Below, in pieces: positions 810 through 61,508 of a stretch of DNA of 64,000 nt. A model generated the notes under the pieces. That model made no database searches. It saw nothing but the letters and a program-made list of their open reading frames with translations, and was not told the DNA's origin. Origin of the DNA: Eledone cirrhosa (taxonomy: Eukaryota); the NCBI GenBank assembly GCA_964016885.1, contig OZ024745.1, positions 129,208,001-129,272,000 of the forward strand. The letters run 5' to 3'. Made by a program: the position numbers and the translations under genes. Position 1 is the first letter of the stretch. Each line of letters starts with the position of its first letter.

Positions 810-1130
810 CGGGAAAAAAAGCAACCTTAACGGTTGGAGTTTCCTGGATAATGGAGATAATATTTTATTGAGGGTAATACAAAGTTATGAGTGAGTATGC
901 AAATTTACATACTCACTCATAACTTTGTATTACCCTCAATAAAATATTATCTCCATTATCCAGGAAACTCCAACCGTTAAGGTTCCCTTTTTTCCGGGTA
1001 TATCAATATTTATTTATAAAACAAATCTGTATTTTATCTGATGAAAGCGCACCATAATTTGCTTTGGTTGCCCTTGAAATATATATAATAAAATAAATAT
1101 GGTTTTATAAATATAGTTTCCATTTATTAA

Positions 1131-1140
<10 letters not shown>
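810..1140 (+). mobile_element. Fold-back PLE-derived element: palindrome plus hammerhead, ending in (TA)n
   Basis: Perfect 77-bp arms at 823-899 and 908-984, then an HHR at 1030-1095. The tail AAATAAATATGGTTTTATAAATATAGTTTCC is shared with 53572-53695. Confidence 0.8.
1030..1095 (+). ncRNA. Type I hammerhead ribozyme motif
   Basis: Stem I TATTTTAT/ATAAAATA; CTGATGA at 1038-1044; imperfect stem II AAGCGCACC...GGTTGCCCTT; GAAA at 1076-1079; palindromic stem III; predicted cleavage after AUA (1087). Confidence 0.8.
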
Positions 1141-1208
<68 letters not shown>

Positions 1209-1420
1209 GTTATTCCGGGTTGAATCGGAGGTAACCACAGTAAGTAAGGTACTAAATACATTGCAGAGTATAACAGTTTTAATATAGATGAGATTCTACA
1301 GGACTAGAACTGTTTCATTCTTTAGAAATCATCAGGAATCTCTTTATTTAATTTAGATATTCCTGATGATTTCTAAAGAATGAAACAATTCTAGTCCTGT
1401 AGAATCTCATCTATATTAAA

Positions 1421-1422
<2 letters not shown>
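1209..1422. mobile_element. Fold-back element with hammerheads on both strands, in (TA)n/(CA)n
   Basis: Inverted arms ~1276-1344 and 1355-1422. Same family at 20512-20698, 41505-41537, 50277-50332, 52571-52697 and 59914-60019. Confidence 0.85.
1290..1342 (-). ncRNA. Type I hammerhead ribozyme motif (inverted copy at 1356-1408, plus)
   Basis: Minus strand reads GAGATTC-CTGATGA-tTTCtaaaGAAt-GAA-ACAG ttctagtc CTGT-A-GAATCTC: 7-bp stem I, intact core, 4-bp stem III, GUA cleavage triplet. Confidence 0.9.
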
Positions 1423-2737: not shown

Positions 2738-3482
2738 GTGGATTAGCAGTATCCATGTAGATTCGGCCGCCATGCTTTCCAGCATAGAGTTACGTCACTT
2801 TACGGTCTGATTTCAAATCCAGCCGAGGTTAACTTTATTTGTGCAAAAAGTAGAAACCATTAATATTGGATTGGCAGTATCGGTAAAGAGCCGGACGGCA
2901 TGCTTTGCAGCATAGAGTTATCGCCCTTTATGTTCTGAGTTCAAATCCCGCCGAGGTTAACTTTGCCTTTCATCCTTATGGGTTCAATAAAATAAAGTAC
3001 CAGTAATGCACTGGGGTAATTGCTGGTCTTGTGCCAAAAGTAGAAACAATTATTATTGGAATGGTAGTATCGGTAAAGAGTCGAACGCCATGCTTTGCAG
3101 CATAGAGTTATTGCCCTTTACGTTATGAGTTCAAATCCCGCCGTGGTTAACTTTGCTTTTCATCCTTACGGGTTCAATAAAGTAAAGTACCAGTAATGCA
3201 CTGGGGTAATTGCTGGCCTTGTGCCAAAAGTAGAAACAATATTACACTCCATAAGGGCGGTAAATTGGCAGTATAGGTGGAGTGTCGGACGACACTCTTT
3301 ATGGCATTGGCATAGAGTTACGGCTCTTTACGATCTAAGTTCAAATCCCGCCGAGTTTAACTTTGCCTTTCATTGTTACGGCGTCGATAAAATAAACTAC
3401 CAGTAATGCACTGGGGTTGATATAATCGACTTTCCCCTCTCCCCCAAATGATTCACCTCGTGCCTAAATCAGAAACCAACAT
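2738..3482 (+). mobile_element. Four tandem copies of a tRNA-derived SINE (~190-230 bp, first copy truncated)
   Basis: A-box-like TGGCAGTATCGG, B-box GAGTTCAAATCC, conserved body GATAAAATAAAGTACCAGT and end GGCCTTGTGCCAAAAGTAGAAAC. Family repeated throughout the window. Confidence 0.9.
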
Positions 3483-8511: not shown

Positions 8512-8723
8512 AAGTTAAACAAGTTTCAATGAATACATCAAAGAATCAGTTTTACAATAGATTGGAAGGTTTTCCAGAGTTGTTAATATTAATTCAAAAT
8601 ATTAACAAAATAGATATTCTTGTGATCAAGTATATTTTATTATACATATTTCAGGGTTACTGAGTTAAAAATATACTTGATCACAAGAATATCTATTTTG
8701 TTAATATTTTGAATTAATATTTA
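8512..8723 (-). mobile_element. Fold-back element truncated inside hammerhead stem II
   Basis: Arms ~8585-8638 and 8668-8721. The minus-strand spacer reads GAAAT-ATGT-ATA-ATAAAATA, the 3' half of an HHR. Confidence 0.7.
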
Positions 8724-8748
8724 CATATATATATATATATATATATGT

Positions 8749-8792
<44 letters not shown>

Positions 8793-8794
<2 letters not shown>

Positions 8795-8998
8795 CAAAGG
8801 AATTGTGGTAAAGAACCAGATGGACCATAACGCACCAGAGTACTCAATACTTAGGGTAGTAGAGTGGGTAATAGGAAAAAGTATGACCGTGACGGCAGAG
8901 CTCAAGCCGTTTCGACGGCTCTATCTGGACTAAATTCAGTCCCAAAATAGCCGTCGAAACGGCTTGAGCTCTGCCGTCGGGGTCATACTTTTTCCTAT
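8793..8998. mobile_element. Fold-back element centred on hammerhead stem II
   Basis: Arms ~8871-8920 and 8950-8998, each reading GAAACGGC-ttgagctct-GCCGTC (stem III plus GUC). Homologue at 20718-20910. Confidence 0.8.
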
Positions 8999-11864: not shown

Positions 11865-12184
11865 ATTACATATCCTATTCATTGTTTTACGATCGTTTCA
11901 GAGGGTTGATCATCACGATATATTGACTGATCTATAGCAGTTATAGAACTGAATACTATCAGACATAATATATGGGTTCGATCATACCGTCTCCATCGGA
12001 TTTGATCGAACCCATATATGTCTGATAGTATTCAGTTCTATAACTGCTATAGATCAGTCAATATATCGATATGATCAACCATCTGAAACGATCGTAAAAC
12101 AATGAATAGGACATGTAAAATAATTTGCCTTTGTTATCATTGTTAAAAAAAAACTATATCAGACTCTGTATAAAAGACTAATAT

Positions 12185-12190
<6 letters not shown>
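11865..12190. mobile_element. Fold-back element with long-stem-II hammerhead remnants
   Basis: Arms ~11865-11981 and 12003-12118, each ending GAAAC-GATC-GTA. The 5' core is degenerate (ATGGAGA on minus). The plus-strand tail runs into (TA)n. Confidence 0.75.
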
Positions 12191-13261: not shown

Positions 13262-13697
13262 TAATAATTGTTTCTACTTTTGTCACAAGGCCAGCAATTA
13301 CCCAGTGTATTACTGGTACTTTATTTTATCGACTCCGTCAGGATCAAAGGCAAAGCTAACACCTGCGGGATTTGAACTGAGATCATAAATGGCCATAACT
13401 CTATGCTGCAAAGCATGGCGTCTGACGCTCTACCGATACTGCCAATCCACCACACTCTGATATAATAATAATGATAATGGTTTCTGATTTAGGCACAAGG
13501 CCAGCAATTTTGGAGGAGGCGAAAGTCGATTAAATCGATATGAGTGCATTACTGATATTTTATTTTATCGACCCTGTAAGGATGAAAGGCAAAGTTAACC
13601 TCGGCGGGATTTGAACTCCGAACTCAAAGGGCCGTAACTATATGTTGCGAAGCAGGTTGTCAGACGTCCTACCAATAATGCCAATCCACCGCCCTAA
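13262..13697 (-). mobile_element. Two tandem tRNA-derived SINE copies
   Basis: Reverse complement of the 2738-3482 family. Confidence 0.9.
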
Positions 13698-15180: not shown

Positions 15181-15604
15181 TTGATAAATAATGAGAAACC
15201 GATCTAACAGAGGAACATATTTATATTTGTATTGCAGGAGAATTACTCGTGCTACGTTTAATGTAAGGTCGCATTAAACGCAACACCTCAAGCAGAGCCC
15301 GTAAGACTGCTTCAGTACTCGATTGAAGCCATTTTCATATTTTATGCTGTTAAGGGATCTGAAAGGGGTACATGAACGTTACAACGTCTCAAAACCTTTT
15401 ATCGAATTCGTTGGAAATTCCCAGTGATCGAAAAAATAGATAGCCTCTGGGTGGTCGATGTGTTACGAATGATGCTGTTAACATGTAACAAGTGCTGTTG
15501 AACAGCACTTGTTACATTAAGCCAGTAATCAGAATCAGAGGCAGGATCCATTAGAACGCATCAAGGGGATAGACGAGTTTCATATTATGTCTACTATATT
15601 TTAC

Positions 15605-20511: not shown

Positions 20512-20698
20512 TCCCGGGTTCAATCGGGGGTAACCACAGTAAGTAAGGTACTCAATACAGAGCAGAGTATAAATATTTAATATAGAAATGGCTTCTACAG
20601 GACAAGAAATATTTCATTCGAAGGAAATCACCAGGAAAGACCTGATGATTTCCTTTGAATGAAACAATTCTAACCCTGTAGAAGCAATTTCTATATTA
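20512..20698. mobile_element. Fold-back hammerhead element (1209-1422 family), both cores impaired
   Basis: Plus copy CTGATGA 20642-20648...GAAAC...GTA lacks the 5' side of stem I. The minus copy has CTGGTGA. Confidence 0.8.
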
Positions 20699-20717
20699 TA
20701 TATATATATATATACAT

Positions 20718-20910
20718 AACGAAGGAAATGTGGTAAAGAACCAGGTGGACCATAACGCACCAAAGTACTCAATACTTGAGGTAGTAGAGTGGGTAATAGG
20801 AACCAGTAAGACCCCGACAGCTGAGCTCAAGCCGTTTCGACGGCTAATTCTGGACTGAATTAGCCGTCGAAACGGCTTGAGCTCAGCTGTCGGGGTCTTA
20901 CTGGTTCCTA
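20718..20910. mobile_element. Fold-back element centred on hammerhead stem II (8793 family)
   Basis: Perfect palindrome around GACGGCTAATTC-tggact-GAATTAGCCGTC, flanked by (TA)n. Confidence 0.85.
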
Positions 20911-21039
20911 TATATATATATATCCAAAACTAAAATTAAGGGTTGTCATGTCTGAGAGATATGCGCCATATCCACTGTAGAATAAGCTCAAAGATTCCAA
21001 TGAATAGATCCGAGCATTACATATCAACTAGAAATAGAT

Positions 21040-25432: not shown

Positions 25433-26545
<1,113 letters not shown>

Positions 26546-26947: not shown

Positions 26948-27049
<102 letters not shown>

Positions 27050-27078
27050 ATGTGTGTGTGTGTGTATGTATATATATG

Positions 27079-27191
<113 letters not shown>

Positions 27192-27216
27192 GTGTGTGTG
27201 TGTATGTATATATATG

Positions 27217-27284
<68 letters not shown>

Positions 27285-27327
27285 CACAAACACACACACA
27301 CACACACACAGACATATATATATATAT

Positions 27328-27863
27328 GTAGATAAATCTACCAAGAGTTTACGGTAGTGTCCAATCCGTATGAAGAACTCAATGTATTCCGGATATCATG
27401 GAAAGAAGAGATGTAATGAAAAATCACTTTCGGTGAAAGATAAACGGTATACAGAGTCAAGATAAAATATTAAACAAATAATGAATAAACAATTCCTTAT
27501 ATTAAACAAAAAAAGTTCATTATTTAACGATCGTTTCTAGGATATATATGTGTTAGAGTTGGCATGCATATTCAACAGATCTATGTACAAAATTATACAA
27601 AATTATACAAACTATCAAGATTAAATATACATACCAACACATATATACGCCGTCTTCAGAAATAATAATTATTTCTGAAGACGGCGTATATATGTGTTGG
27701 TATGTATATTTAATCTTGATAGTTTCTATAATTTTGTATAATTTTGTACATAGATCTGTTGAATATGCATGCCAACTCTAACACATATATATCCTAGAAA
27801 CGATCGTTAAATAATGAACTTTTTTTGTTTAATATAAGGAATTGTTTATTCATTATTTGTTTA

Positions 27864-27872
<9 letters not shown>
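27328..27872. mobile_element. 411-bp near-perfect palindrome with long-stem-II hammerheads on both strands
   Basis: Arms 27462-27666 and 27668-27872 (205 bp each, 1-nt spacer, one mismatch seen). The minus-strand tail continues to 27328. Confidence 0.9.
27668..27815 (+). ncRNA. Type I hammerhead with ~115-nt stem II (mirror copy 27519-27666, minus)
   Basis: ATTATTT-CTGAAGA-[cGGcgTATATATGTGTTGG...CTAACACATATATAtCCta]-GAAAC-GATC-GTT-AAATAAT. Confidence 0.85.
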
Positions 27873-27932
<60 letters not shown>

Positions 27933-27978
27933 GTCAAATATGTAATATTTGTCTTCGTTTATTACAAATTATAGATAT

Positions 27979-28033
27979 ACTGCTATATATATTTCGGTGA
28001 CACCCATCATTGGCTGTGACCTCTTCAGGCAGT
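27979..28033 (-). ncRNA. Type I hammerhead within insert 27927-28163
   Basis: ACTGC-CTGAAGA-stem II-GAAA-TATATA-TA-GCAGT. Homologue of 1648-1702. Confidence 0.85.
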
Positions 28034-28169
28034 CTGAATTGGTGTGGGAAGGACAGGTACACATGTTGTTGAAGTGTGTTTTACTCCGTCAATACATCGA
28101 TATGTCCAGATCCTGGTTGTGTTGTTATTCCTCTGAGGAATAACCAACATATACTCAAAATTTATATAT

Positions 28170-37528: not shown

Positions 37529-37754
37529 ATTGCTATATTCACGGTTTTTGTTGAAATCCCCTTCTCTTTAGTTGATGCACATCCCACCCTTTACTGATTT
37601 TAAACCCACCATCAAACCCACCATCACACCCACTATCAAACCCGCCATCACACCCACCATCACACCCACCATCAAACCCACCACCAAACCCATCATCACA
37701 CCCACCATCACACCCACTATCAAACACGCCATCACACCCACCATCACACCCACA

Positions 37755-39795
37755 AGCTGGTGGAAAGAGAGAGGTGTGGGGTTGCATAGATCACCTACTA
37801 ACTAATAAAATGATTCAAGAAAAAAGAAGAAAGAATCGCAGAAACATGACTGTGGTGTGGCTGGACTATGAAAAAGAATTTCATAGTGTACCTCATGGGT
37901 GGATTGTTAAGGCTTTACAGTTAGCCAAAGTCCCACAACCACTGGTAGCTGCTGTTGAACGTCTGACCAAGAACTGGTGCACCAGTTTGATCCTTAGAGG
38001 TGAGAAGGAGCAAGTTAAGACTGATAGGATACATTACCAGAAGGGCATCTTTCAGGGTGATAGCTTGTCAGTGCTACTCTTCGTTCTCTCACTAAATCCA
38101 CTATCTTACCTACTCAGGAAACAAGGTGGACAAAGAAGTGGGTCAAGAAGTATCTCCCATCTTTTCTTTGTTGATGACCTGAAGTTGTATGGGCCAAATA
38201 TCAATGACATCACGAAACAATTGGACCTCATTACACAATTTTTAACAGACATCAAAATGAAATTTGGTGAGTCCAAATGTGCATATTTGGCAGTAAAACG
38301 TGGAAGAGCTGTGCCGTCCTCTAGAAATCTAGAGATGAACGTCCTGACAATACAACCTCTACAGTCAGGTGACAACTACAGATATCTTGGACAGGATGAG
38401 AATGTCAGATATGATGGACCCATAAATGAGGAGAGAACCAGAACTGAATACCTCAGAAGAGTAAAGAAAATATGTTCATCAGAACTGTCAGCGTACAACA
38501 AATACATTGCCCACAATACTTATGCTGTGCCAATTCTAACGCCAACTTTTGGTCAGCTGAACTGGTCATTGCAAGAACTAAGTGAGATGGATGTTAGAAC
38601 TCGCAAACTTCTCAGTGTTACTGGGAACTTTAACATCAATGGTGATGTGGATAGGCTATACTTCTCACGCAAGGAAGGTGGCCGGGGTCTAAAATCCATA
38701 TTAACATCATATGAGACCCGAATAGTAACACTGAAGCAACATCTTCAACATAGGAAAAAAGTTGGCAACCATCTTGCCCAGGTTTATGAGCATGAAAAAA
38801 ATATATCATTAGAATAGCCACTGATCTTGAGGAGAGATATGGAATAAAGCCTGATATAAATCTCTCACCCAGAGAAATCGGAAGATCCTATTCAATGTTC
38901 AAACAAGATGAAAAAATTGACCAATTTACAGAAAAAGTTGTGCATGGATACTTGAGACGTAAAACACAGACAAACACAGACGTAAAACATAGTGGATAAA
39001 CCACTCAAAAAGCCTGGCATGGAGTTTCGACAAGTTTATGACATCACACCTTGAAGAATATCTCTATGCAATGCAGGAACAAGAACTCCCTACCAAATAT
39101 CTGCTGCACAAAGGGGGAGGACCATCAGCTGACAATAAATGTAGGCTATGTAAAACAAAGATCGAGGATGTAAGCCACATTGTTGCCAGCTGCGAAAGAA
39201 TGTCATCTCGCTACTACCTCACCATAAGACACGATGGGATAGCTAGAACCATCTAGAACGCACTTTGGAAAACAAAATTAACAAAAAACGAGGAAGAATA
39301 TATTGAGACAGATGGCACTAAGCAATACTGGTGGAACCTGAAAATAAAAACTGCCACCAAATTAAAGCACAACCGGCCTGATATTGTTGTTTGGGACCAC
39401 ACATTGTAAACGTGTTCTGTTGTGGAGATCAGCTGCCCACTTGATGTAAACGTTGTCAGAAACATACAGGAGAAGGAGGACATCTAGGGACCATTGATGG
39501 GGAGTTTACAAATCCATTATCCAAGATACACCTTTAGCTTCATACCCATCATTATTGGAGCTACGGGTTATATACCCACCCGCTTGGACCAAAGTATCAC
39601 TGAACTTGGATTTGCGGACAAAGAACGCAGCTCCCTAATTCATAGTCTACAAATCGCTGCGATAGCTGGCACCTTCAAAATTTGCAAAACATTCTTGCGA
39701 TTCAAGGGATGACAATTTCTTTTCTTTTACAACCTTGCCACTAGGAAGGTGGCCGGTCAAAACATATATACTCGAAATTAAGAGAAATAGATAAC
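37755..39795 (+). mobile_element. 5'-truncated R4/Dong-like non-LTR retrotransposon (RT, CCHC, restriction-like endonuclease), disrupted
   Basis: WLDYEKEFHSVPH, GIFQGDSLS, HLFFVDDLKLY, YRYLG, EGGRGL; CRLC...SHIVASC, RHDGIA; NRPDIVVWD...VEISCP. Contains stops and frameshifts, and is followed by (TACA)n. Confidence 0.9.
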
Positions 39796-48799: not shown

Positions 48800-49019
48800 T
48801 ATAGTTATGTAATAAACAACATAAGATAATTATTTCATTTACCAAAGGTTTCACGAAGACAGCGAGCTTGACACATACGTCTGCCTTCAATCATCAGAAT
48901 TAATTTTATTAAAATGGATGTGATATATCTCCCACAGACGTATGTGTCAAGCTAGTCTGTCTTCATGAAACCTTTGGTAAATGAAATAATTATCTTATGT
49001 TGTTTATTACATAACTATA
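48800..49019. mobile_element. Fold-back element with hammerhead (48837-48900, minus)
   Basis: Arms 48800-48883 and 48935-49019. ATT-CTGATGA-tTGAAGGCAG...CTGTCTTCGt-GAAACC-ttt-GGTA-AAT. The terminus is identical to the PLE tail at 10137-10173. Confidence 0.85.
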
Positions 49020-49087
49020 TATATACATATATATATATATGATATAATATATATATAATGTGTGTAGAAATGTTGTAGTTAATATTT

Positions 49088-49525
49088 TTGTCCTTTAAGG
49101 ACCATATGAGTTCTGATGCACTTTTTACTGTTTTAAATTGTAACTTAGTTAACCTTAATATTATTAAGAATAATATACTTGATCTATTTAAGCACCATAA
49201 CCTAAAAATTGAATTTGAAAACAATGTCAAACTAGCAAACTTCCTGGATATATCCCTTAATCTTGACACCGGCCTATATTAACCTTACCATAAAGACAAT
49301 GAGAATCTAAATTATGTTAATTTTAAATCTAACCACCCTATTAACGTTAAAAATGCTATAGTCAGTAATGTTGATTTAACACTTCATTGCTCGCAAGTGT
49401 TTTTGAAGCTTCACATCATGTCTCCCTATTTTATCTGATTAGAACGCAAACATCATCCTATGATGATATTTGTTTTTGAAATGCGCATAACAAAATACAT
49501 GGAACTCTTTTAACCATCTTTTCAT

Positions 49526-49530
<5 letters not shown>
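49088..49530 (+). mobile_element. Penelope-like RT C-terminal fragment fused to a hammerhead-bearing tail
   Basis: LFKHHNLKIEFENNVKLANFLDISLNLDTGLY*PYHKDNENLNYVNFKSNHP, followed on the same strand by an HHR at 49427-49497 (core CTGATTA, G8 mutated). Confidence 0.8.
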
Positions 49531-49595
<65 letters not shown>

Positions 49596-49665
49596 TACAT
49601 ACACATACATACATACATACATACATACATACATACATACATACATACATACATACATACATACA

Positions 49666-50912: not shown

Positions 50913-51506
50913 TTTTAGATATAAAATTATCTTTGTATCACTTTTATATATCCTGTACTTCATTTCTCTATTCCATCTATCCTATCCCTCATATATATTC
51001 TGTACTTTTTTTAATCCATTTCTCCAGTCCATCTTATTAAATATTATTTAATCAGAAAATGATGGGTTATAAGGTGTAACCCTTCCTTTTTTTATTAAAT
51101 AATGTTCCATTCATTTTCTCTACAAAGAATCAAGAACGTAGAATCATTGTACTTCCAATAATGTAAGTATTGCAAGACAAATGACATGTCTTTCGGCATC
51201 CCGGCATACCTCAATTACTAAGTACTGCAGTGTCACTAGCTATCTCATCTCTTCACCGAAGCTACTATATCTCTATTACCAAATACTCATTGTCAGTAGC
51301 TATCTCTTCATCGCAGCAGCCATACCTCCATTCCCAAGTACTACAGTTGCTGTAGCTATTTCATTTCATTCACATTGCATTCATTCAACATTGTTCAATT
51401 TCTCTACTCCCTGAAGACAACAGTAATTCAATTAGAATTTCCTTGCACATATTCAGATGTTATTAATGGCGGACAACGTAAACAATATTATGTCAGCTTC
51501 TGAGAG

Positions 51507-52570: not shown

Positions 52571-52697
52571 TGAATTTCCTGATGATTTCTTACGAATGAA
52601 ACAGTTCTAGTCCCGTAGAAGTCATTTTTATAATATATATGCATGCATATGCATATGTGATTATGTATAAAATGACTTCTACGGGACTAGAACTGTT
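52571..52697 (+). ncRNA. Hammerhead (52571-52624) followed by an inverted partial copy
   Basis: ATTTC-CTGATGA-tTTCttacGAAt-GAAACAGttctagtcCCGTA-GAAGT. Member of the 1209 family. Confidence 0.75.
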
Positions 52698-52727
52698 TAT
52701 ATATATATATAACCATATATATATAAC

Positions 52728-53687: not shown

Positions 53688-53771
<84 letters not shown>

Positions 53772-53801
53772 AAATCAAAAGATGGTTAAAAGAGTTCCAT
53801 G

Positions 53802-53872
53802 TATTTTATTATGCGCATTTCAAAAACAAATATCATCATGGGATGATATTTACGTTCTCATCAGATAAAATA
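53802..53872 (-). ncRNA. Type I hammerhead, intact
   Basis: TATTTTAT-CTGATGA-GAACGTAAATATCATC..GATGATATTTGTTTTT-GAAAT-GCGC-ATA-ATAAAATA. Homologue of 49427-49497. Confidence 0.9.
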
Positions 53873-54102
53873 GGGAGACATGAAATGAAGCTTAAAAAAC
53901 ACTTGGGTGCAGTGAAGTGTTAAATCAACATATGAAAAATAAAATAAGATGGATATATGAGATTGGGAAAAAAGGAGGAAGGGGAAAGGAAAAGGTAAGG
54001 AAGAGGAAGAAAGAAAATAAAGGATGACGGCGGAGGAGTATAAGTAGGAAGGATGAGAGACGAGGAGAAATGAATGAAAGAGAGAGAGAGGGAGAGATAG
54101 AG

Positions 54103-54641: not shown

Positions 54642-57600
54642 TTACAGATACGAACTCAGAGTAGGCCCATTCACTCGGGCCATACCTGCTTCTTTCACCC
54701 ATCTTTCAACAAAATGCTTGGAAGAGAGCACTTCCCTCTCTACTCTGATTTTCCTTTTCAAATGAAATTTGAAAAAGTCAATCAGGGCATCACCGAAGAG
54801 GTAAGTGCTCGTCTTCAGCCCTTTCAAACGTGTCCACCATACTATCTCTTTCGCCATGGCCACCAGACAGATAAAAACTGCATGCCCTTCCCGGCTAAAT
54901 GAAGAGGGCGGGGCAATCCTCACGATGGACTCAGATGATAGCCGGATCCGTCCTACACGCGACAGCAGGTGTTCGACATAAACCCACAAGTCAGCAATTT
55001 TCGGACACTGGACGAGTGCGTGCAGGACGGTTTCGTCGCCCTACGCGCATCTCGGACATGCCCGGCTGACGGTACCTCCATGCCTGTAGAGTTTATCCCG
55101 AACTGGCAAGGCTCCTCGGTAGCACTGCCAGGCCAGAGATTTCTGGAAGTTGTCCATAGGCCCCGGCCCGAAAGTTCTTCCGAAGAGATTGGCTAGTTGA
55201 TTTTCGTCGACGCCTAGAGTTTCCCCAAGTACGTCGTCGCTCTTCCCCTCCACTAATCTTCTATAGAACGCCGAGGTGGAGTTTCCATCGATCACATTGC
55301 CCGATTGGTCGAGGGCTGTGAGCGCCTGAAGACATTCCAGTCTCCAGGCGCTCCCTCTCGGCCTTCGCTTGACCCAGGACTGCAGCTCCGTCAAGGAGAC
55401 GAGCTGGGGAAATACGTGTCTAGCAAACGGCGACCACACCTGATCACCGTCGAGGAAGAGGTGGAGATGTCGTAGCCTGAGTACGTGTCTGCGCATCATC
55501 AGCCACGGCATGCCCAGCCCTCCACGTAGCGGGTGTTGACAGCAGATGGACCGCCTGACCATCGGAGCGCGTCCCTTCCACAAAAAGCGAAAGAGAAAAC
55601 GCTCCAGCGAGGTCAGGCGGAGCTTAGGACAAGGTACGACGGTCAGGCGGTAGCAGATGACAGACGCGATGTACGCGCTAGCCACCTCCGCCCGACCTTT
55701 CTGGGATAGCTTCCTCTCCGCCCATTTCTGGGTGAGAGAAGCCACCCTGCTCGTCACCTCGTCCCAGTTTTTGTCCGTCTGGAGGTCCGGACCGAACCAG
55801 ACCCCTAGCAATTTAACCGGCCCGTCCGTCCAGCGTCCGACGACGCTGTTGGACGGCATGGACCTGCCTCTCCAGGTGCCGAGCTGCAGGCCCACTGACT
55901 TTTCCTGGTTGATCATTGCTCCTGTCACCACTTCGTATTCTCTTAGTGTAGTGCCGATCACCTCGATGTGTTTGGCGTTCGACACCACTACGGTGACATC
56001 GTCCGCATATGCTGACACGGATCTTCCGCATCCTAGTTCGCGCGGGACGCCCCTCAACGTCTCCAGTTTGTGCAGTAATGGCTCGAGAGTCAATACGTAC
56101 AAGAGGGACGAGAGGGGACATCCTTGGCGGACCGAGCGCATGATGTTGAACGGTTCCGAAAGGTGACCGTTCACTCTCACCACAGAGAAGATGTTGCTGT
56201 GCATGGCAGCGATCCAGCCTCTGAAGACGGGCTCAAAGCCAGCCGCCCTCAGGACTGCCGCCAGGTAACGATGGTCGACCCTATCGAAAGCTTTCGACTG
56301 ATCTAAATTGATCAAGGACCCACCCGTGCCAGGTTCCCTAGCTACCCTCTCTACGATGTATCGCATGAGGTGGAGGTTGTCGTGGATGGATCTGTCGGGA
56401 ATGGCGCACGTCTGCGCCTCTCCCACCAGACCACCAACGACAAGCGCCAACCTCTTTACTAGCACCTTGGCCAAAATCTTGAACTCTGTGTTTAGCAGAG
56501 TTATGGGCCTGAAATTGTCTATGTTATCCCCCTTGTTCGGATCCTTTCTCAGCAGTGCCACCGCTCCTCGGCTCACAGAGCTGGGAATTTTCCCGTTCTG
56601 TTGCCAGTTGCAGTAGACGTCCGCCAAGAGGCCTCCGAAAAAGTTATGGCATCTGTACGTAAAGTTCATAGGGCAGACCATCCAAACTAGGCGATTTACC
56701 CCATGTGTAGCCAGTCATTGCCTTCCGTACTTCAGCGGCTGTTATCGGCTTTTCGCAACACTCCGCCTCAGTGGCCGAGAGCCGCGGCAGTCCGTCGAGG
56801 TAGACACTAAAGTCCATCCCTCGACCCGGCCCACCGCTGCCCCCGAACAGCTGAGCGAAGTGTCGCTGAAAAGCTTCACACATTTGCCCGGGATCGAGTA
56901 GCATGCGCTCGTCGTGGTCCACCAAAGACCGGATCGTGGCTTTGTTGCCACGACGCGCCTCCGCCACTCGGGCCCATTGAACTGCTTTTGTCCCCTCGTC
57001 TATGAGAGCACGCACCCTAGCTCTGACAACGCAACCTTCGTGCTTTGCATTGAAGAATTGGTCAAGGGCCAATTTCGCCGCAAGCACGTCGGTCGCGATG
57101 CCTTTGCTAAGCGTCTCGTCTAATTTTCTAACTAGTTCTCCCTCTGCTCTATTATTTTCTATTGCTAAAGCCTTACTAAACCTAATGGACTCTATTCTAA
57201 TCGCTCTTTTCAGAGCAAACCACCACTTGTTGTTGACGATGGCCCCCGTCAACGCCCGCTTAACTAGTTCGCTAATCCGGTCTCTGTAGGCCTTGCGCGC
57301 TGGTAAGGACGCGTTTAGCTTCCAGTAGCCGGGTCCTCGTCTATCAAGCCTATCTAAGTCAAGCACACAGATCACGAATTTGTGGTCCGTGTAGCTGACT
57401 ATCTTGAATTGTGGACAGCCTATGCTAGACCTATCTATTTCCCTACAAAATACTCTATCTAGATATGATCTGGATGACCCTATCGATTTGTCCAAGTCCA
57501 CATTGGCACATTCGGGAAATCCAATCGGTACCTGTCAGACAGTTCAAAACGCCTGAGCAGGTTGGTGAGGATCTTGCACCCTCCACCCCTATCCGCTAAT

Positions 57601-58061
57601 CCCACACAGTCCCAGCGTGCATCTAAGATCCCGTTCCAGTCGCCCACTAACACTAAAGAGCGGGACGTTCCAAGAAAGGTCTCCAGACGCCGGAAGAAAT
57701 CAGGCCGCCCTGCTCCTGTCGGCGCATAGACGGCCACTAGCCTGAAAGCTTGCCCGTCTCCGCTGGTCACGTCCAGCACCACGAACTTACCCTCTGGGTA
57801 CAGGAAGATGGCCCGTATGGCGAGATCCAAACCTCTCCGAAAAAGCACAGCAACTCCTCCCCCCGATCCAAGACGGCTGGGAGATGCGTACACATCGTAG
57901 CCGCCGAAGATCGGTGCGAAGGCCCGTGCTTCGGAGATTTTGGTCTCGCTGATGGCCACTACATCTATGTTTAGTGACCTGAGGTCGTTGAGTAGTTGAC
58001 CCTTATACCATGACGACCCCAAGCCACGTGCATTTATGCTCCCTATTCTGAGTGAGGTCAT
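54642..58061 (-). pseudogene. LINE ORF2 (APE endonuclease, reverse transcriptase, zinc finger) with two frameshifts and one nonsense codon
   Basis: SINARGL, ISETK, VYAP, VGDWN, LDRVF, YTDHK; RPITLLN, LDQSKAFDRVDH, VRQGCPLS, AYADDV; CPRCA*GDETVLHALVQC. Frameshifts near 57490 and 56660, TAG at 55041-55043. Confidence 0.92.
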
Positions 58062-58096
58062 GTTTAAAATGGAGTGGGAAAGATGGGAAAGACCAC

Positions 58097-59146
58097 TTAC
58101 CGTACTTTTCGTAGAGGAAGGATGGTTTCTCCATCCCTTTTCACTTGATCGTCTGGTGAAGCGACCGTTGAATCGTCCCTTCGGCTGGTCGTTGACTCTT
58201 CTATGAGTATGTCCGAATATACTCTCCGGTTGAGAGTCCCTCCTAGGTCTCTGAAATCACCAACTGCGTTGGGGAATTTCGTTTTAATGTTTGTGTAATG
58301 TTTCTGTGCTGTTTTTACCAGTCTTATGTTCGTTGGCGTTTTGATTGGTGGTGGTATTATATAGTCGTGCTGTGAAATGTCTGTGTGTTCAATTATGTAG
58401 GTCATTAGTTTCTTGTTGTGTGTATTTATTGCTGTGCATTTGTTTTTCTGGGGGTGCGGTGTGGTTCTGCTATTTTCTTGTCGTTATTGCTGGGTGTGTG
58501 TGTTTTGTTGTTGTGTTTGCGATGTTGGTGCTTGTGGTGGTGGTGTTGAAGGTGTTGTTGTTGTTGGCGGTGGGGTTGTCGCCGGTGGTGATGGTGGTGC
58601 TAGTGTGGGTGGTGATGGTGTTCGTGGTGTTGCTGCTGTGAGTCTCTTTGCAGTAGCCTTTACCCTTTTTTCATTTCTTTCCTCCCTTTTCGAAGGCGAC
58701 GATGCGCTGCTTCTGCGTTTGTGCCTTCTTACGACCTTTTGCCATCCCTCTCCCACCTCACACTCCATGTCTGATTCTGTGAGGTCGGGGAGGGGTACCA
58801 GCTCCACTCTTTCACTTGTTGTTGTTGGTGATGTTTGCAGTGGAGTCTCTGTTGCAGCTGCATTTGGTATTACTGTTGTCGTTAATACTTCCACTGCTGC
58901 TGCTGTTCTTGATTTCCGTGGCGTGGGTATGGGTGCCACGGACCTATCGTTCCTGGTTGCCGCTTGTCCTGTTGCTGGTAGCCGAGGAGCCGGTTTCGGA
59001 AGGAGGGGGGTTTTCTCCTTTCTCAGGGTCTTCTCGTTGCAGAAGGCCCTGAGGTGAGTCTTCGATCCACAGCGAAAGCATTTCGGACGTTTGCCCTCAA
59101 CGCTTATGGGCTGTTGCTGTGGTTGTTGTTGTTGTTGTTGTTGTTT

Positions 59147-59818: not shown

Positions 59819-60029
59819 GGAAAACTTTTCCATAGGGGATCGAGAAGGAACCACATCAAAGTTAAATAAGATACTGAATACATTAGTAGAGAAGATACAT
59901 ATTTATTTCAAAGAGAAATGACTTCTACGAGACTAGAACTGTTTCCTTTGTTTGAAATCAAGGCCATCCTGCTGGTTTGAAACGGATGAAAGAGTTCTGT
60001 CTCTATAGAAGTCGTTTCTATATTATATA

Positions 60030-60925
60030 TTGAAAACGAGTCGCTGGTGGCGGAGAGCAATACGGCCACCAGATATGATGGGTTTTTTACGATATAAGCG
60101 GGTTCTTGCCAGACGAATAAGGAAATCCGGACGTACAGTAGTAAACTATTAGGGGATATGGAGCAATGAGTGATACTGTTTGGTCTCAAGAAAACTCTCA
60201 CCACCCAGTGATGTAGCTACGTCGAGGCGAGTAAAGGCTACTTCTATATAAACCTAAACTTCGCCGATCTGAAAAAAGTACCGAATAGGTGACTGGCGCT
60301 AATAGGACCACCAAAACACTGCATTGTGTTAACAAAGGGTATGAAAGGGAGTAAACCTTGACAATTGATAACTGGAACCTTACAAACCTTACATGTAAGG
60401 AGATGGAACAGGTGGAGGAGGCCAGATGCTACCGGAATGATACAGTCAGGTTTTTCTCAACGAAGATTTACGGCTCTTGTACTGTAGATTTGAATAAAGG
60501 ATGGAAACCCCACTATTCTTGTGTGGTGCCAGAAATGGCTGCATAAGCGGGAGAACTCACAAGCCCTCGGCTGTCAGAATGCATTATGGATTGGATCCCA
60601 TTGGAAATGAGGATTTGCCTCTTGAAACTTAGGCTGAATGAAGGGTCTCTGTGTGCGTTGCAACTATATGCGCCAAACAGAGTCCGAATATATTCTTCCT
60701 TGAAGAAGTTACTGCAGTGTTAGATGTAGTTAAGACTGACTGAATTATATATATAGTTGGGAGACCTCAATGCACATGTTGGAACTGACACCCCGTCATG
60801 GAATGAAGTGATCGGAAAAACGGTGATCCCGATCTAAATATGAATGGAGATGCATTATTAGACTTCTGTTTTAGTAATGGGCTCTCTAAAATGAACACCT
60901 TCTGACACAAATACATCTATACATA
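60030..60925 (+). mobile_element. Degenerate RTE 5' UTR and APE endonuclease
   Basis: WNLTNLTCKEMEQVEEA..., YAPN, GDLNAHVG, NGDALLDFC motifs across broken frames. Confidence 0.7.
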
Positions 60926-61164
60926 TTGATGGTCTGAGGTGAGAAGGGGAAAGGGATCAACACTTGATAAGGAAGCTTACAAAGCCTAGCTTGAAAATAA
61001 GTCTTCTTCCTTGCATAGTCTAGGGCCCATTGATAACTACTAGAAATCCCTGTCCTGATAGTGCTACTTCGGAGCATTGCCAATTCCAGATGAAATCTAA
61101 AGGCATGGAAGTGCCGTCAGCCGGGTCTGTCCGAGATGCGTGCAGGACGACGAAACCGTAACCA

Positions 61165-61508
61165 TGAAATGCAAAGCTAACTGACACTCACTGAATGTGT
61201 TAGCTTTGCGTTTCATCCTTACTGGGTCGATAAAATAAAGTACCAGTAATGTACTGGAGTCAATTCAATCGATTTTTTTCTCTCCTTCAAATTTCTGGCC
61301 TTGTGCCTAAATCAGAAAGCATTACTATCGTAGATTGGCAGTATCGGTAGAGGGTCGGACGCCATGCTTTGAGTTACGGCCCTTGCCATTCTGAGTTCAA
61401 ATCCCGCCGAGGTTAACTTTGCCTTTCATCTTTACGGGGTCGATAAAATAAAGTACCAGTAATGCACTGGGTATTTGCTGGCCTTGTGCCAAACGTCGAA
61501 ACAATTAT
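61165..61508 (+). mobile_element. 5'-inverted partial SINE plus full SINE
   Basis: Hairpin ATGAAATGCAAAGCTAAC / GTTAGCTTTGCGTTTCAT at the truncated SINE start, then a second copy at 61330-61508. Confidence 0.8.

Follow-up and report, generated by a model that had tools for sequence, protein, structure and literature searches.

The palindrome at positions 27328..27872 of the window (the whole 64,000-nucleotide stretch of DNA analysed here) is real, and it is likely the leftover of a Penelope-like element (PLE) with two mirror-image ribozyme-bearing ends, most likely a young, 5'-truncated head-to-head end pair. We tentatively propose, with a probability of roughly 0.4, that this pair was made by twin priming at a (TA)n target from one uncleaved RNA and two fixed start sites; the evidence slightly favours priming on both target strands over snap-back of a single cDNA.

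As the sequence-only reading of this DNA had described, the palindrome consists of two inverted arms of 205 nt each (27462-27666 and 27668-27872) around a 1-nt spacer (A27667), and the arms match at 204 of 205 positions, the sole mismatch being 27608/27726. The left arm, which lies on the minus strand, extends 133 nt beyond the shared part (27462..27666) to 27329, and this tail (27329..27461), whose outer end recurs beside (TA)n in the family, is found on one arm only. The untailed arm (27668..27872), on the plus strand, carries a second hammerhead and stops at the family's fixed untailed site. TA-rich microsatellite adjoins both outer ends, namely a (TA)n/(CA)n tract at 26952..27328 on the tailed side, which is the likely insertion target, and a (TA)n tract at 27873..27929 on the untailed side, which overlaps the arm by 3 nt (TAT). 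Both arms lack a 9-nt insertion found near 27486 in other family members, and they agree with each other at 27558, 27648 and 27651, where at least half of the family depth differs.

A type I hammerhead was found in each arm using a descriptor and constrained folds. In the tailed arm (27516..27666, minus strand), the 5' strand of stem I at 27666-27660 (7 visible bp, with 3 bp more in the family) is followed by the core CUGAAGA (27659-27653), a stem II of ~115 nt (27652-27538), GAAA (27537-27534), a GUU triplet (27528-27526) with the predicted cut at 27526/27525, and the 3' strand of stem I (27525-27516). In the untailed arm, the core, GAAA and GUU lie at 27675-27681, 27797-27800 and 27806-27808 on the plus strand. 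Stem III has 2 bp with a palindromic GAUC loop. The hammerhead descriptor was satisfied by none of 2000 dinucleotide shuffles of the arm. Note that the call comes from a looser descriptor together with constrained folds and not from Rfam, given that the strict descriptor missed this copy through a mismatch near the stem II base, and that Rfam gave no hammerhead at the gathering score and none in the best 150 of 355 E-value matches, nearly all of which were generic miRNA-like hairpins. The constrained hammerhead fold (-39.4 kcal/mol) is 6.3 kcal/mol higher than the free fold (-45.7 kcal/mol) and is therefore not the lowest-energy structure. The whole ribozyme is present in both arms, and for this pair a 5' end lying where the ribozyme would cleave was therefore rejected. 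About 20 hammerhead-related pieces were found within the 64-kb window, and end pieces bearing a hammerhead without fold-back lie at 1647-1807, 27978-28140, 49368-49601, 53697-53931, 28579, 31484, 53665 and 30174. In the unpaired copy at 27978-28140, TTCAG, which resembles a 3' splice site, stands immediately 5' of helix I; this recalls the intron end of D. virilis, which maps to the helix I 5' end according to the available part of PMC4209133.

We examined the family in two raw RAD runs (X21 and X22), which come from other individuals and another study than the two contig sets of one sample (X1 and X2). Reads of 150 nt were aligned to a single long arm, and fold-backs appear as strand changes. 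The family is abundant, with 5131 and 4960 reads aligned in X21 and X22. Fold-back joints at 27665-27667 were present in 5 reads of X21 and 7 reads of X22, so that a palindrome is seen in raw reads of two other individuals, these 12 reads deriving from the 27328 locus or from sister copies. The symmetric joints were 27666/27666 (2+7 reads in X21+X22), 27665/27667 (3+0) and 27657/27658 (1+3). All three fall within 27657-27667, a strip with ~3% of the read depth, in agreement with the earlier view that centres are not uniformly placed; note that two of the three share one turn, which may include the 27328 locus, and count as two positions together with the third, and that the strip sits at the edge of the alignment reference. 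None of the joints listed in the reads had arms separated by up to 40 letters. The X1 and X2 contigs showed no joints and none spanned the locus, their pieces (~60-170 nt) being too short to bridge it.

In addition, three asymmetric head-to-head joints with a tail-only arm were found, namely 27461/27587 (72+26 reads from one start, in both individuals), of which 27461 is the exact tail boundary, 27367/27666 (5 reads, X22) and 27376/27652 (1+3 reads), with overlaps of 1, 0 and 6 nt, respectively. These joints were oriented head-to-head through the lengths on the shorter side, and reads of 150 nt are too short to show whether the partner of the tail-only arm is untailed. Because its orientation was ambiguous, 27382/27553 (48+55 reads, one start) was excluded from the head-to-head count of joints, and one further read joint is a same-strand skip. 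Five of the seven inverted joints have an end in 27652-27667. The 9-nt insertion near 27486 was present in 488 of 950 and 593 of 1046 family reads, and many reads over 27486-27624 also have a variant stem II, indicating that the family comprises several subfamilies.

The reads also bear on where the palindrome turns. The sequence upstream of 27666, which is common to family reads, adds 3 bp to stem I, making 10 bp in all, and reads G at 27667. The turn is thus 3 bp inside a 10-bp stem I and not exactly at the stem I 5' edge, where it had been placed before, and the spacer A does not come from a family template, A27667 being likely a non-templated base or a later change. The further suggestion that reverse transcriptase (RT) stalled at the uncleaved ribozyme does not hold, because RT travelling 3' to 5' meets the 3' side of the ribozyme first, yet the whole motif was copied, and the copy turned only after passing stems I, III and II as well as the core. 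Moreover, 624 and 505 reads pass upstream of 27666 versus 6 and 10 that fold back, so that ~98% continue; hairpins are probably under-sampled in such read libraries.

The 27328 pair is one of 12 head-to-head pairs in the window. At all eight sites named in the sequence-only reading a head-to-head pair with one longer arm was confirmed, and the tail was one-sided in 8/8 (~56-78 nt, and 133 nt at 27328). The arms match at 66/68 (1209), 57/58 (8512), 57/64 (8793), 112/119 (11865), 58/68 (20512), 55/55 (20718), 140/141 (25471) and 204/205 (27328) positions, which gives an arm identity of 85-100% across these sites. Four further pairs lie at 812-995, 25959/26517 (arms), ~48800-49020 and 59914-60019. 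Specifically, three pairs belong to family A: the pair at 1209..1422, with the tailed arm on the left, a tail of ~67 nt, an 11-nt loop and an intact GUA hammerhead; the pair at 20512..20708, which turns 2-7 nt upstream of the core; and an old, previously unlisted pair at 59825..60031, which turns at a decayed core. Two pairs belong to family C, one at 8793..8998 with its centre in stem II, no core and a tail of ~78 nt, and one at 20718..20911 with a 6-nt loop in tailed orientation, no core and the same untailed end as at 8793. The pair at 8512..8725 has a 29-nt loop with GAAA and stem III in tailed orientation and no core, the pair at 11866..12186, a relative of the 27328 family, has as its loop a decayed core in untailed-arm orientation, and the pair at 25471..25813 has a 0-nt spacer, a U3-A8 core variant, a turn 31 nt upstream of the core and a tail of ~61 nt. 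Among the other unlisted pairs, that at 812..1137 is centred ~135 nt upstream of a hammerhead core at 1038, that at 48800..49020 has equal outer ends, no tail and a 51-nt loop with the core and 37 nt upstream of it, and the inverted pair at 25959..26517 has its arms 250 nt apart, the hammerhead-like motif that lies between them at 26266 being oriented like the arm whose outer end is slightly shorter. Separately, the family A pair at 52599-52698 is inverted tail-to-tail, its 30-nt arms enclosing a TA-like spacer and its polarity being opposite to that of all other pairs, and short palindromes without a recognisable hammerhead lie at 15483-15517, 51040-51106 and 61158-61222.

It had been stated that the turning point is at, inside or just upstream of the hammerhead. 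This stands for 9 of the 12 pairs, which turn in the hammerhead or at most 31 nt upstream. As corrections to it, the catalytic core is absent at 8512, 8793 and 20718 (3/8 listed sites), the turn at 25471 is 31 nt upstream of the core, and three of the four unlisted pairs extend 37, ~130 and ~135 nt upstream of the core. A start within 31 nt upstream of the core was counted in 9/12 fold-back pairs versus 2/8 unpaired hammerhead copies (Fisher p = 0.065), where the counts were set by hand and the copies are not independent; an excess of near-core starts in fold-back pairs over unpaired copies is thus suggestive only.

The arms of a pair mostly resemble each other more than they resemble sister copies. 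Within-copy arm identity exceeded that between sister copies in four of five comparable copies (51/52 and 44/52 versus 37-39/52 in one family, and 49/52 and 52/52 versus 43-46/52 in another), the exception being 59895 at 36/50. This supports the earlier assignment to the PLE-type inverted copy at a truncated end. Given this excess, and given that the 27328 arms share letters missing from at least half of the family, both arms appear to come from one template in most copies. The shared letters at 27558, 27648 and 27651 fit twin priming and snap-back equally.

The outer ends follow a regular pattern. Tailed ends adjoin a TA, CA or TTA repeat in 10/10 pairs examined and untailed ends in 7/10; in most pairs the untailed arm shares a few bases with the (TA)n, and any target-site duplication is hidden by the microsatellite flanks. 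Family reads ending at 27462 in (AT)n numbered 387 in X21 and 408 in X22, at local depths of ~1020 and ~1140, so that the untailed end 27462 is a fixed family site, and both outer ends of the pair (27329 tailed, 27462 untailed) are fixed across the family. Likewise, the unpaired family A copies 50330, 52579 and 41504 stop within ~10 nt of the short-arm ends, and both family C short arms finish at the same base. As to motifs, the hexamer ACTCTG was found in 6/9 long arms, with near variants in 3 more, often a few bases from the tail boundary, and several tails from families that are unrelated contain a motif resembling TATTGAGT, the tails examined including those at 1209, 8512, 8793, 11865, 20512 and 27328. 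These motifs may represent a common initiation or nicking signal.

Judged by non-coding features, the pairs are likely PLE end pieces with an inverted copy. When 85 of 167 candidate frames in the window were compared with Pfam, no GIY-YIG and no PLE protein was found, and all matches were LINE-type (RVT_1, zf-RVT, Exo_endo_phos) and distant from the elements. A protein search with one frame of the 27328 arm (X at stops) returned 0/21 candidates at E<=1 and no longer relative; an ORF is not expected, as the unit is only a 340-nt end piece. Scans with a 22-letter family motif gave one match in metagenomes, a chance hit within bacterial-looking coding DNA, and none in viruses. A MITE or TIR DNA transposon was ruled out by the one-sided tail at 8/8 listed sites and by inner ends that vary among sister copies; equal outer ends were found in only one pair, the unlisted one at 48800. 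A non-LTR retrozyme was ruled out as well, the units being head-to-head and not head-to-tail tandem. The window as a whole is microsatellite-rich, animal-type DNA. It also holds an abundant SINE-like dispersed repeat of ~190 bp (2867-3054), with copies 78-89% alike at 13263, 14990, 29156, 33049, 37340, 44096, 48506, 50729, 61330 and 63820, and two broken LINE ORFs, at 55041-58256 (minus strand, endonuclease and RT) and 37576-39253 (plus strand, RT and zf-RVT), neither of which is PLE-type by its Pfam matches.

The layout is known from PLEs. In the available parts of the respective papers, insertions of endonuclease-bearing (EN+) PLEs are described as having an inverted 5'-truncated copy, a tail at one end, a repeat-borne hammerhead and a (TA)n target (Craig 2021, PMC8557442), palindromic inverted junctions with a tail on one inverted pLTR are reported in Arkhipova 2013 (PMC3846280), where self-priming was inferred on an antisense template, and a curation guide names inverted pLTRs and short 3' extensions as known PLE peculiarities (PMC8969392). 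The units found here share with EN+ PLE insertions the head-to-head inverted 5'-truncated copy, palindromic junction, one-end tail, hammerhead and (TA)n, whereas the tails described in these parts are 30-40 bp, against ~56-78 nt and, at 27328, 133 nt here, no ORF is attached here, and the published self-priming uses antisense RNA. Cervera and de la Pena 2014 (PMC4209133, in its accessible part) reported hammerhead pairs 100-700 bp apart on opposite strands, with a palindromic helix III. The motifs here are likewise type I, with a short palindromic helix III and, at 25471, the U3-A8 variant, and mostly single motifs from truncated PLEs, but the predicted ribozyme at 27328 differs by its ~115-nt stem II and GUU triplet. 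Animal non-LTR retrozymes, as far as described in the accessible text of bioRxiv 2026.07.22.740005, are also short, non-coding, PLE-derived and of type I hammerhead, but form head-to-tail tandem arrays and not head-to-head pairs. The structure and the self-priming reading are therefore already in print, and the clustering of junctions and twin priming offer a modest new angle; in the literature searched, which covered few subscription papers, we found no report of PLE junctions at the hammerhead, nor of twin priming for PLEs.

According to the twin priming proposal, the element's enzyme would nick both strands of the (TA)n target, and two cDNAs would be started on the same uncleaved RNA, one from its tail end and one from 27462. 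Whether by reaching a shared RNA 5' end or by stopping, both cDNAs would terminate next to stem I or just within it, and their 3' ends would be joined via 0-1 added bases or a short self-complementary stretch, each being filled in on the other. If the tail-primed cDNA stopped early, the outcome would be an inversion resembling those of L1, in which one arm is tail only. The enzyme would not be blocked by the ribozyme, which would instead mark the template end; as guesses, the marking could come from a promoter or intron boundary or from exonuclease trimming up to the folded RNA.

Several observations favour this reading. The untailed end is a fixed site that is also used by unpaired copies, and the three head-to-head read joints carry a tail-only arm, one of them exactly at 27461. 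The 11865 loop matches the 27328 core region at 8/9 bases in the untailed-arm orientation only, and the 1209 loop points weakly the same way, matching the upstream sequence of copy 52579 at 7/10 in untailed orientation versus 1/10, by eye. The in vitro behaviour of the Poseidon PLE is also in line with twin priming: the accessible part of PMC11167929 describes a purified enzyme, a predicted dimer, that nicks each of the two target strands and extends both, initiates at two internal sites delimiting the tail and works mainly from uncleaved RNA. Like the pairs here, the Poseidon PAc system has two fixed 3' ends that bound the tail, a target rich in AT and a template whose ribozyme is uncleaved, but its initiation needs no target homology, and no head-to-head products are described in that part. 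L1 twin priming, as covered in part by PMC4245944 and bioRxiv 2024.12.14.628481, likewise involves RT from both nicked target strands and head-to-head junctions, and the joint 27461/27587 has an L1-like form; in L1, however, the inversion duplicates little sequence and the internal priming site varies, whereas the site here is fixed and 55-205 nt are duplicated.

Other observations speak against twin priming. A symmetric centre of 0-1 nt requires both cDNAs to end at the same base, which snap-back gives free, and the loops at 8512, 20718 and weakly 20512 are in tailed orientation, as snap-back predicts. A later asymmetric central deletion could have reversed the 11865 loop, where the arms are only 94% alike. 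The ~0.06 chance of all three tail-only arms stopping inside the tail was also counted against it. The Poseidon data come from a different PLE clade and the authors propose no twin priming in the available part of PMC11167929, the untailed arms mostly overlap (TA)n whereas initiation in vitro needed no homology, and no PLE protein was found in the 85 of 167 frames scanned in the window.

Snap-back of the cDNA without a stall is a close alternative, only slightly less probable than twin priming. A tail-primed cDNA would pass the ribozyme, end on its 5' side, fold back via ribozyme helices or a few added bases and be copied to 27462, after which a site-specific nick or TA microhomology would join it to the target. 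This would account for the perfect centres with 0-1-nt spacers (27328, 25471 and the joints at 27657-27667) and the near-identical arms, and natural helices could prime, given that the 8793 and 20718 centres lie in stem II and the inner ends at 8512 are stem I-like. The parts of the literature available provide precedents, in that self-priming was proposed from such junctions (PMC3846280), the PLE tail was ascribed to endonuclease resolution of an intermediate (PMC8557442), and 2-bp hairpins prime inverted duplications at L1 breaks (bioRxiv 2024.12.14.628481). However, the family sequence upstream of 27666 holds no templated hairpin seed, a second event fixed at 27462, the site also used by unpaired copies, is required, the 11865 loop belongs to the untailed arm, and for the three asymmetric joints the model calls for 126-300-nt loops closed on 0-6 nt of homology. 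The earlier proposal of snap-back followed by opening and joining is thus not favoured, as it leaves the fixed 27462 end, the tail-only arms and the 11865 loop unexplained.

That a hairpin formed once in RNA, by self-priming on antisense RNA (Arkhipova 2013) or as a palindromic non-autonomous master, and was then copied as a unit has a small probability. Outer ends are common within families, and reads with as many as 5 start sites show the turn at 27666, which speaks for such copying, but centres vary among sister copies (1209 versus 20512, 8793 versus 20718, and joints 27657 versus 27666), in 4/5 cases the two arms of one copy are more alike than arms of different copies, and most family reads pass upstream without fold-back. 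Still less probable is an inverted arm added after insertion by host replication or repair (a template switch or fold-back at an AT-rich break), with intrastrand repair keeping the arms alike. The flanking (TA)n is itself palindromic, and the tail-to-tail pair at 52599-52698 and the short hammerhead-less palindromes at 15483 and 61158 would suit such a process, but the inverted arm stays within the element and stops at an element-defined site, the turn is in the hammerhead or at most 31 nt upstream in 9/12 pairs, and PLEs across animals characteristically show this layout (PMC8557442, available part). Fold-back artefacts of library preparation, sequencing or assembly are very improbable, for although X1 and X2 gave no joint or spanning contig and fold-backs make up 1-2% of edge reads, the same turn occurs in raw reads of two individuals from a study other than that of X1/X2 with no overlap at the joint, arm identity spans 72% to 100%, and both outer ends lie in microsatellite at family-specific sites.

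The origin of PLE inverted repeats and tails, and the role of the hammerhead, are called open in the available parts of PMC8557442 and PMC11167929. To this question the window contributes 12 short pairs within 64 kb, a dense set of which part is very young, and read evidence that junctions cluster on the 5' side of the ribozyme, and the loop orientation, the tail-only arms and the fixed untailed end provide signatures that could separate twin priming from snap-back. Should it be transcribed, the near-perfect hairpin of 205 bp would offer a substrate to editing or small-RNA pathways. A wider, rather unlikely generalisation is that twin priming is programmed in PLEs, with a dimeric RT-endonuclease, two fixed RNA sites and a folded hammerhead that serves as the 5' boundary of the template and not as scissors; if this were true, a single reaction would produce both the inverted pLTR and the one-sided tail and would fix the junctions at the ribozyme 5' edge.
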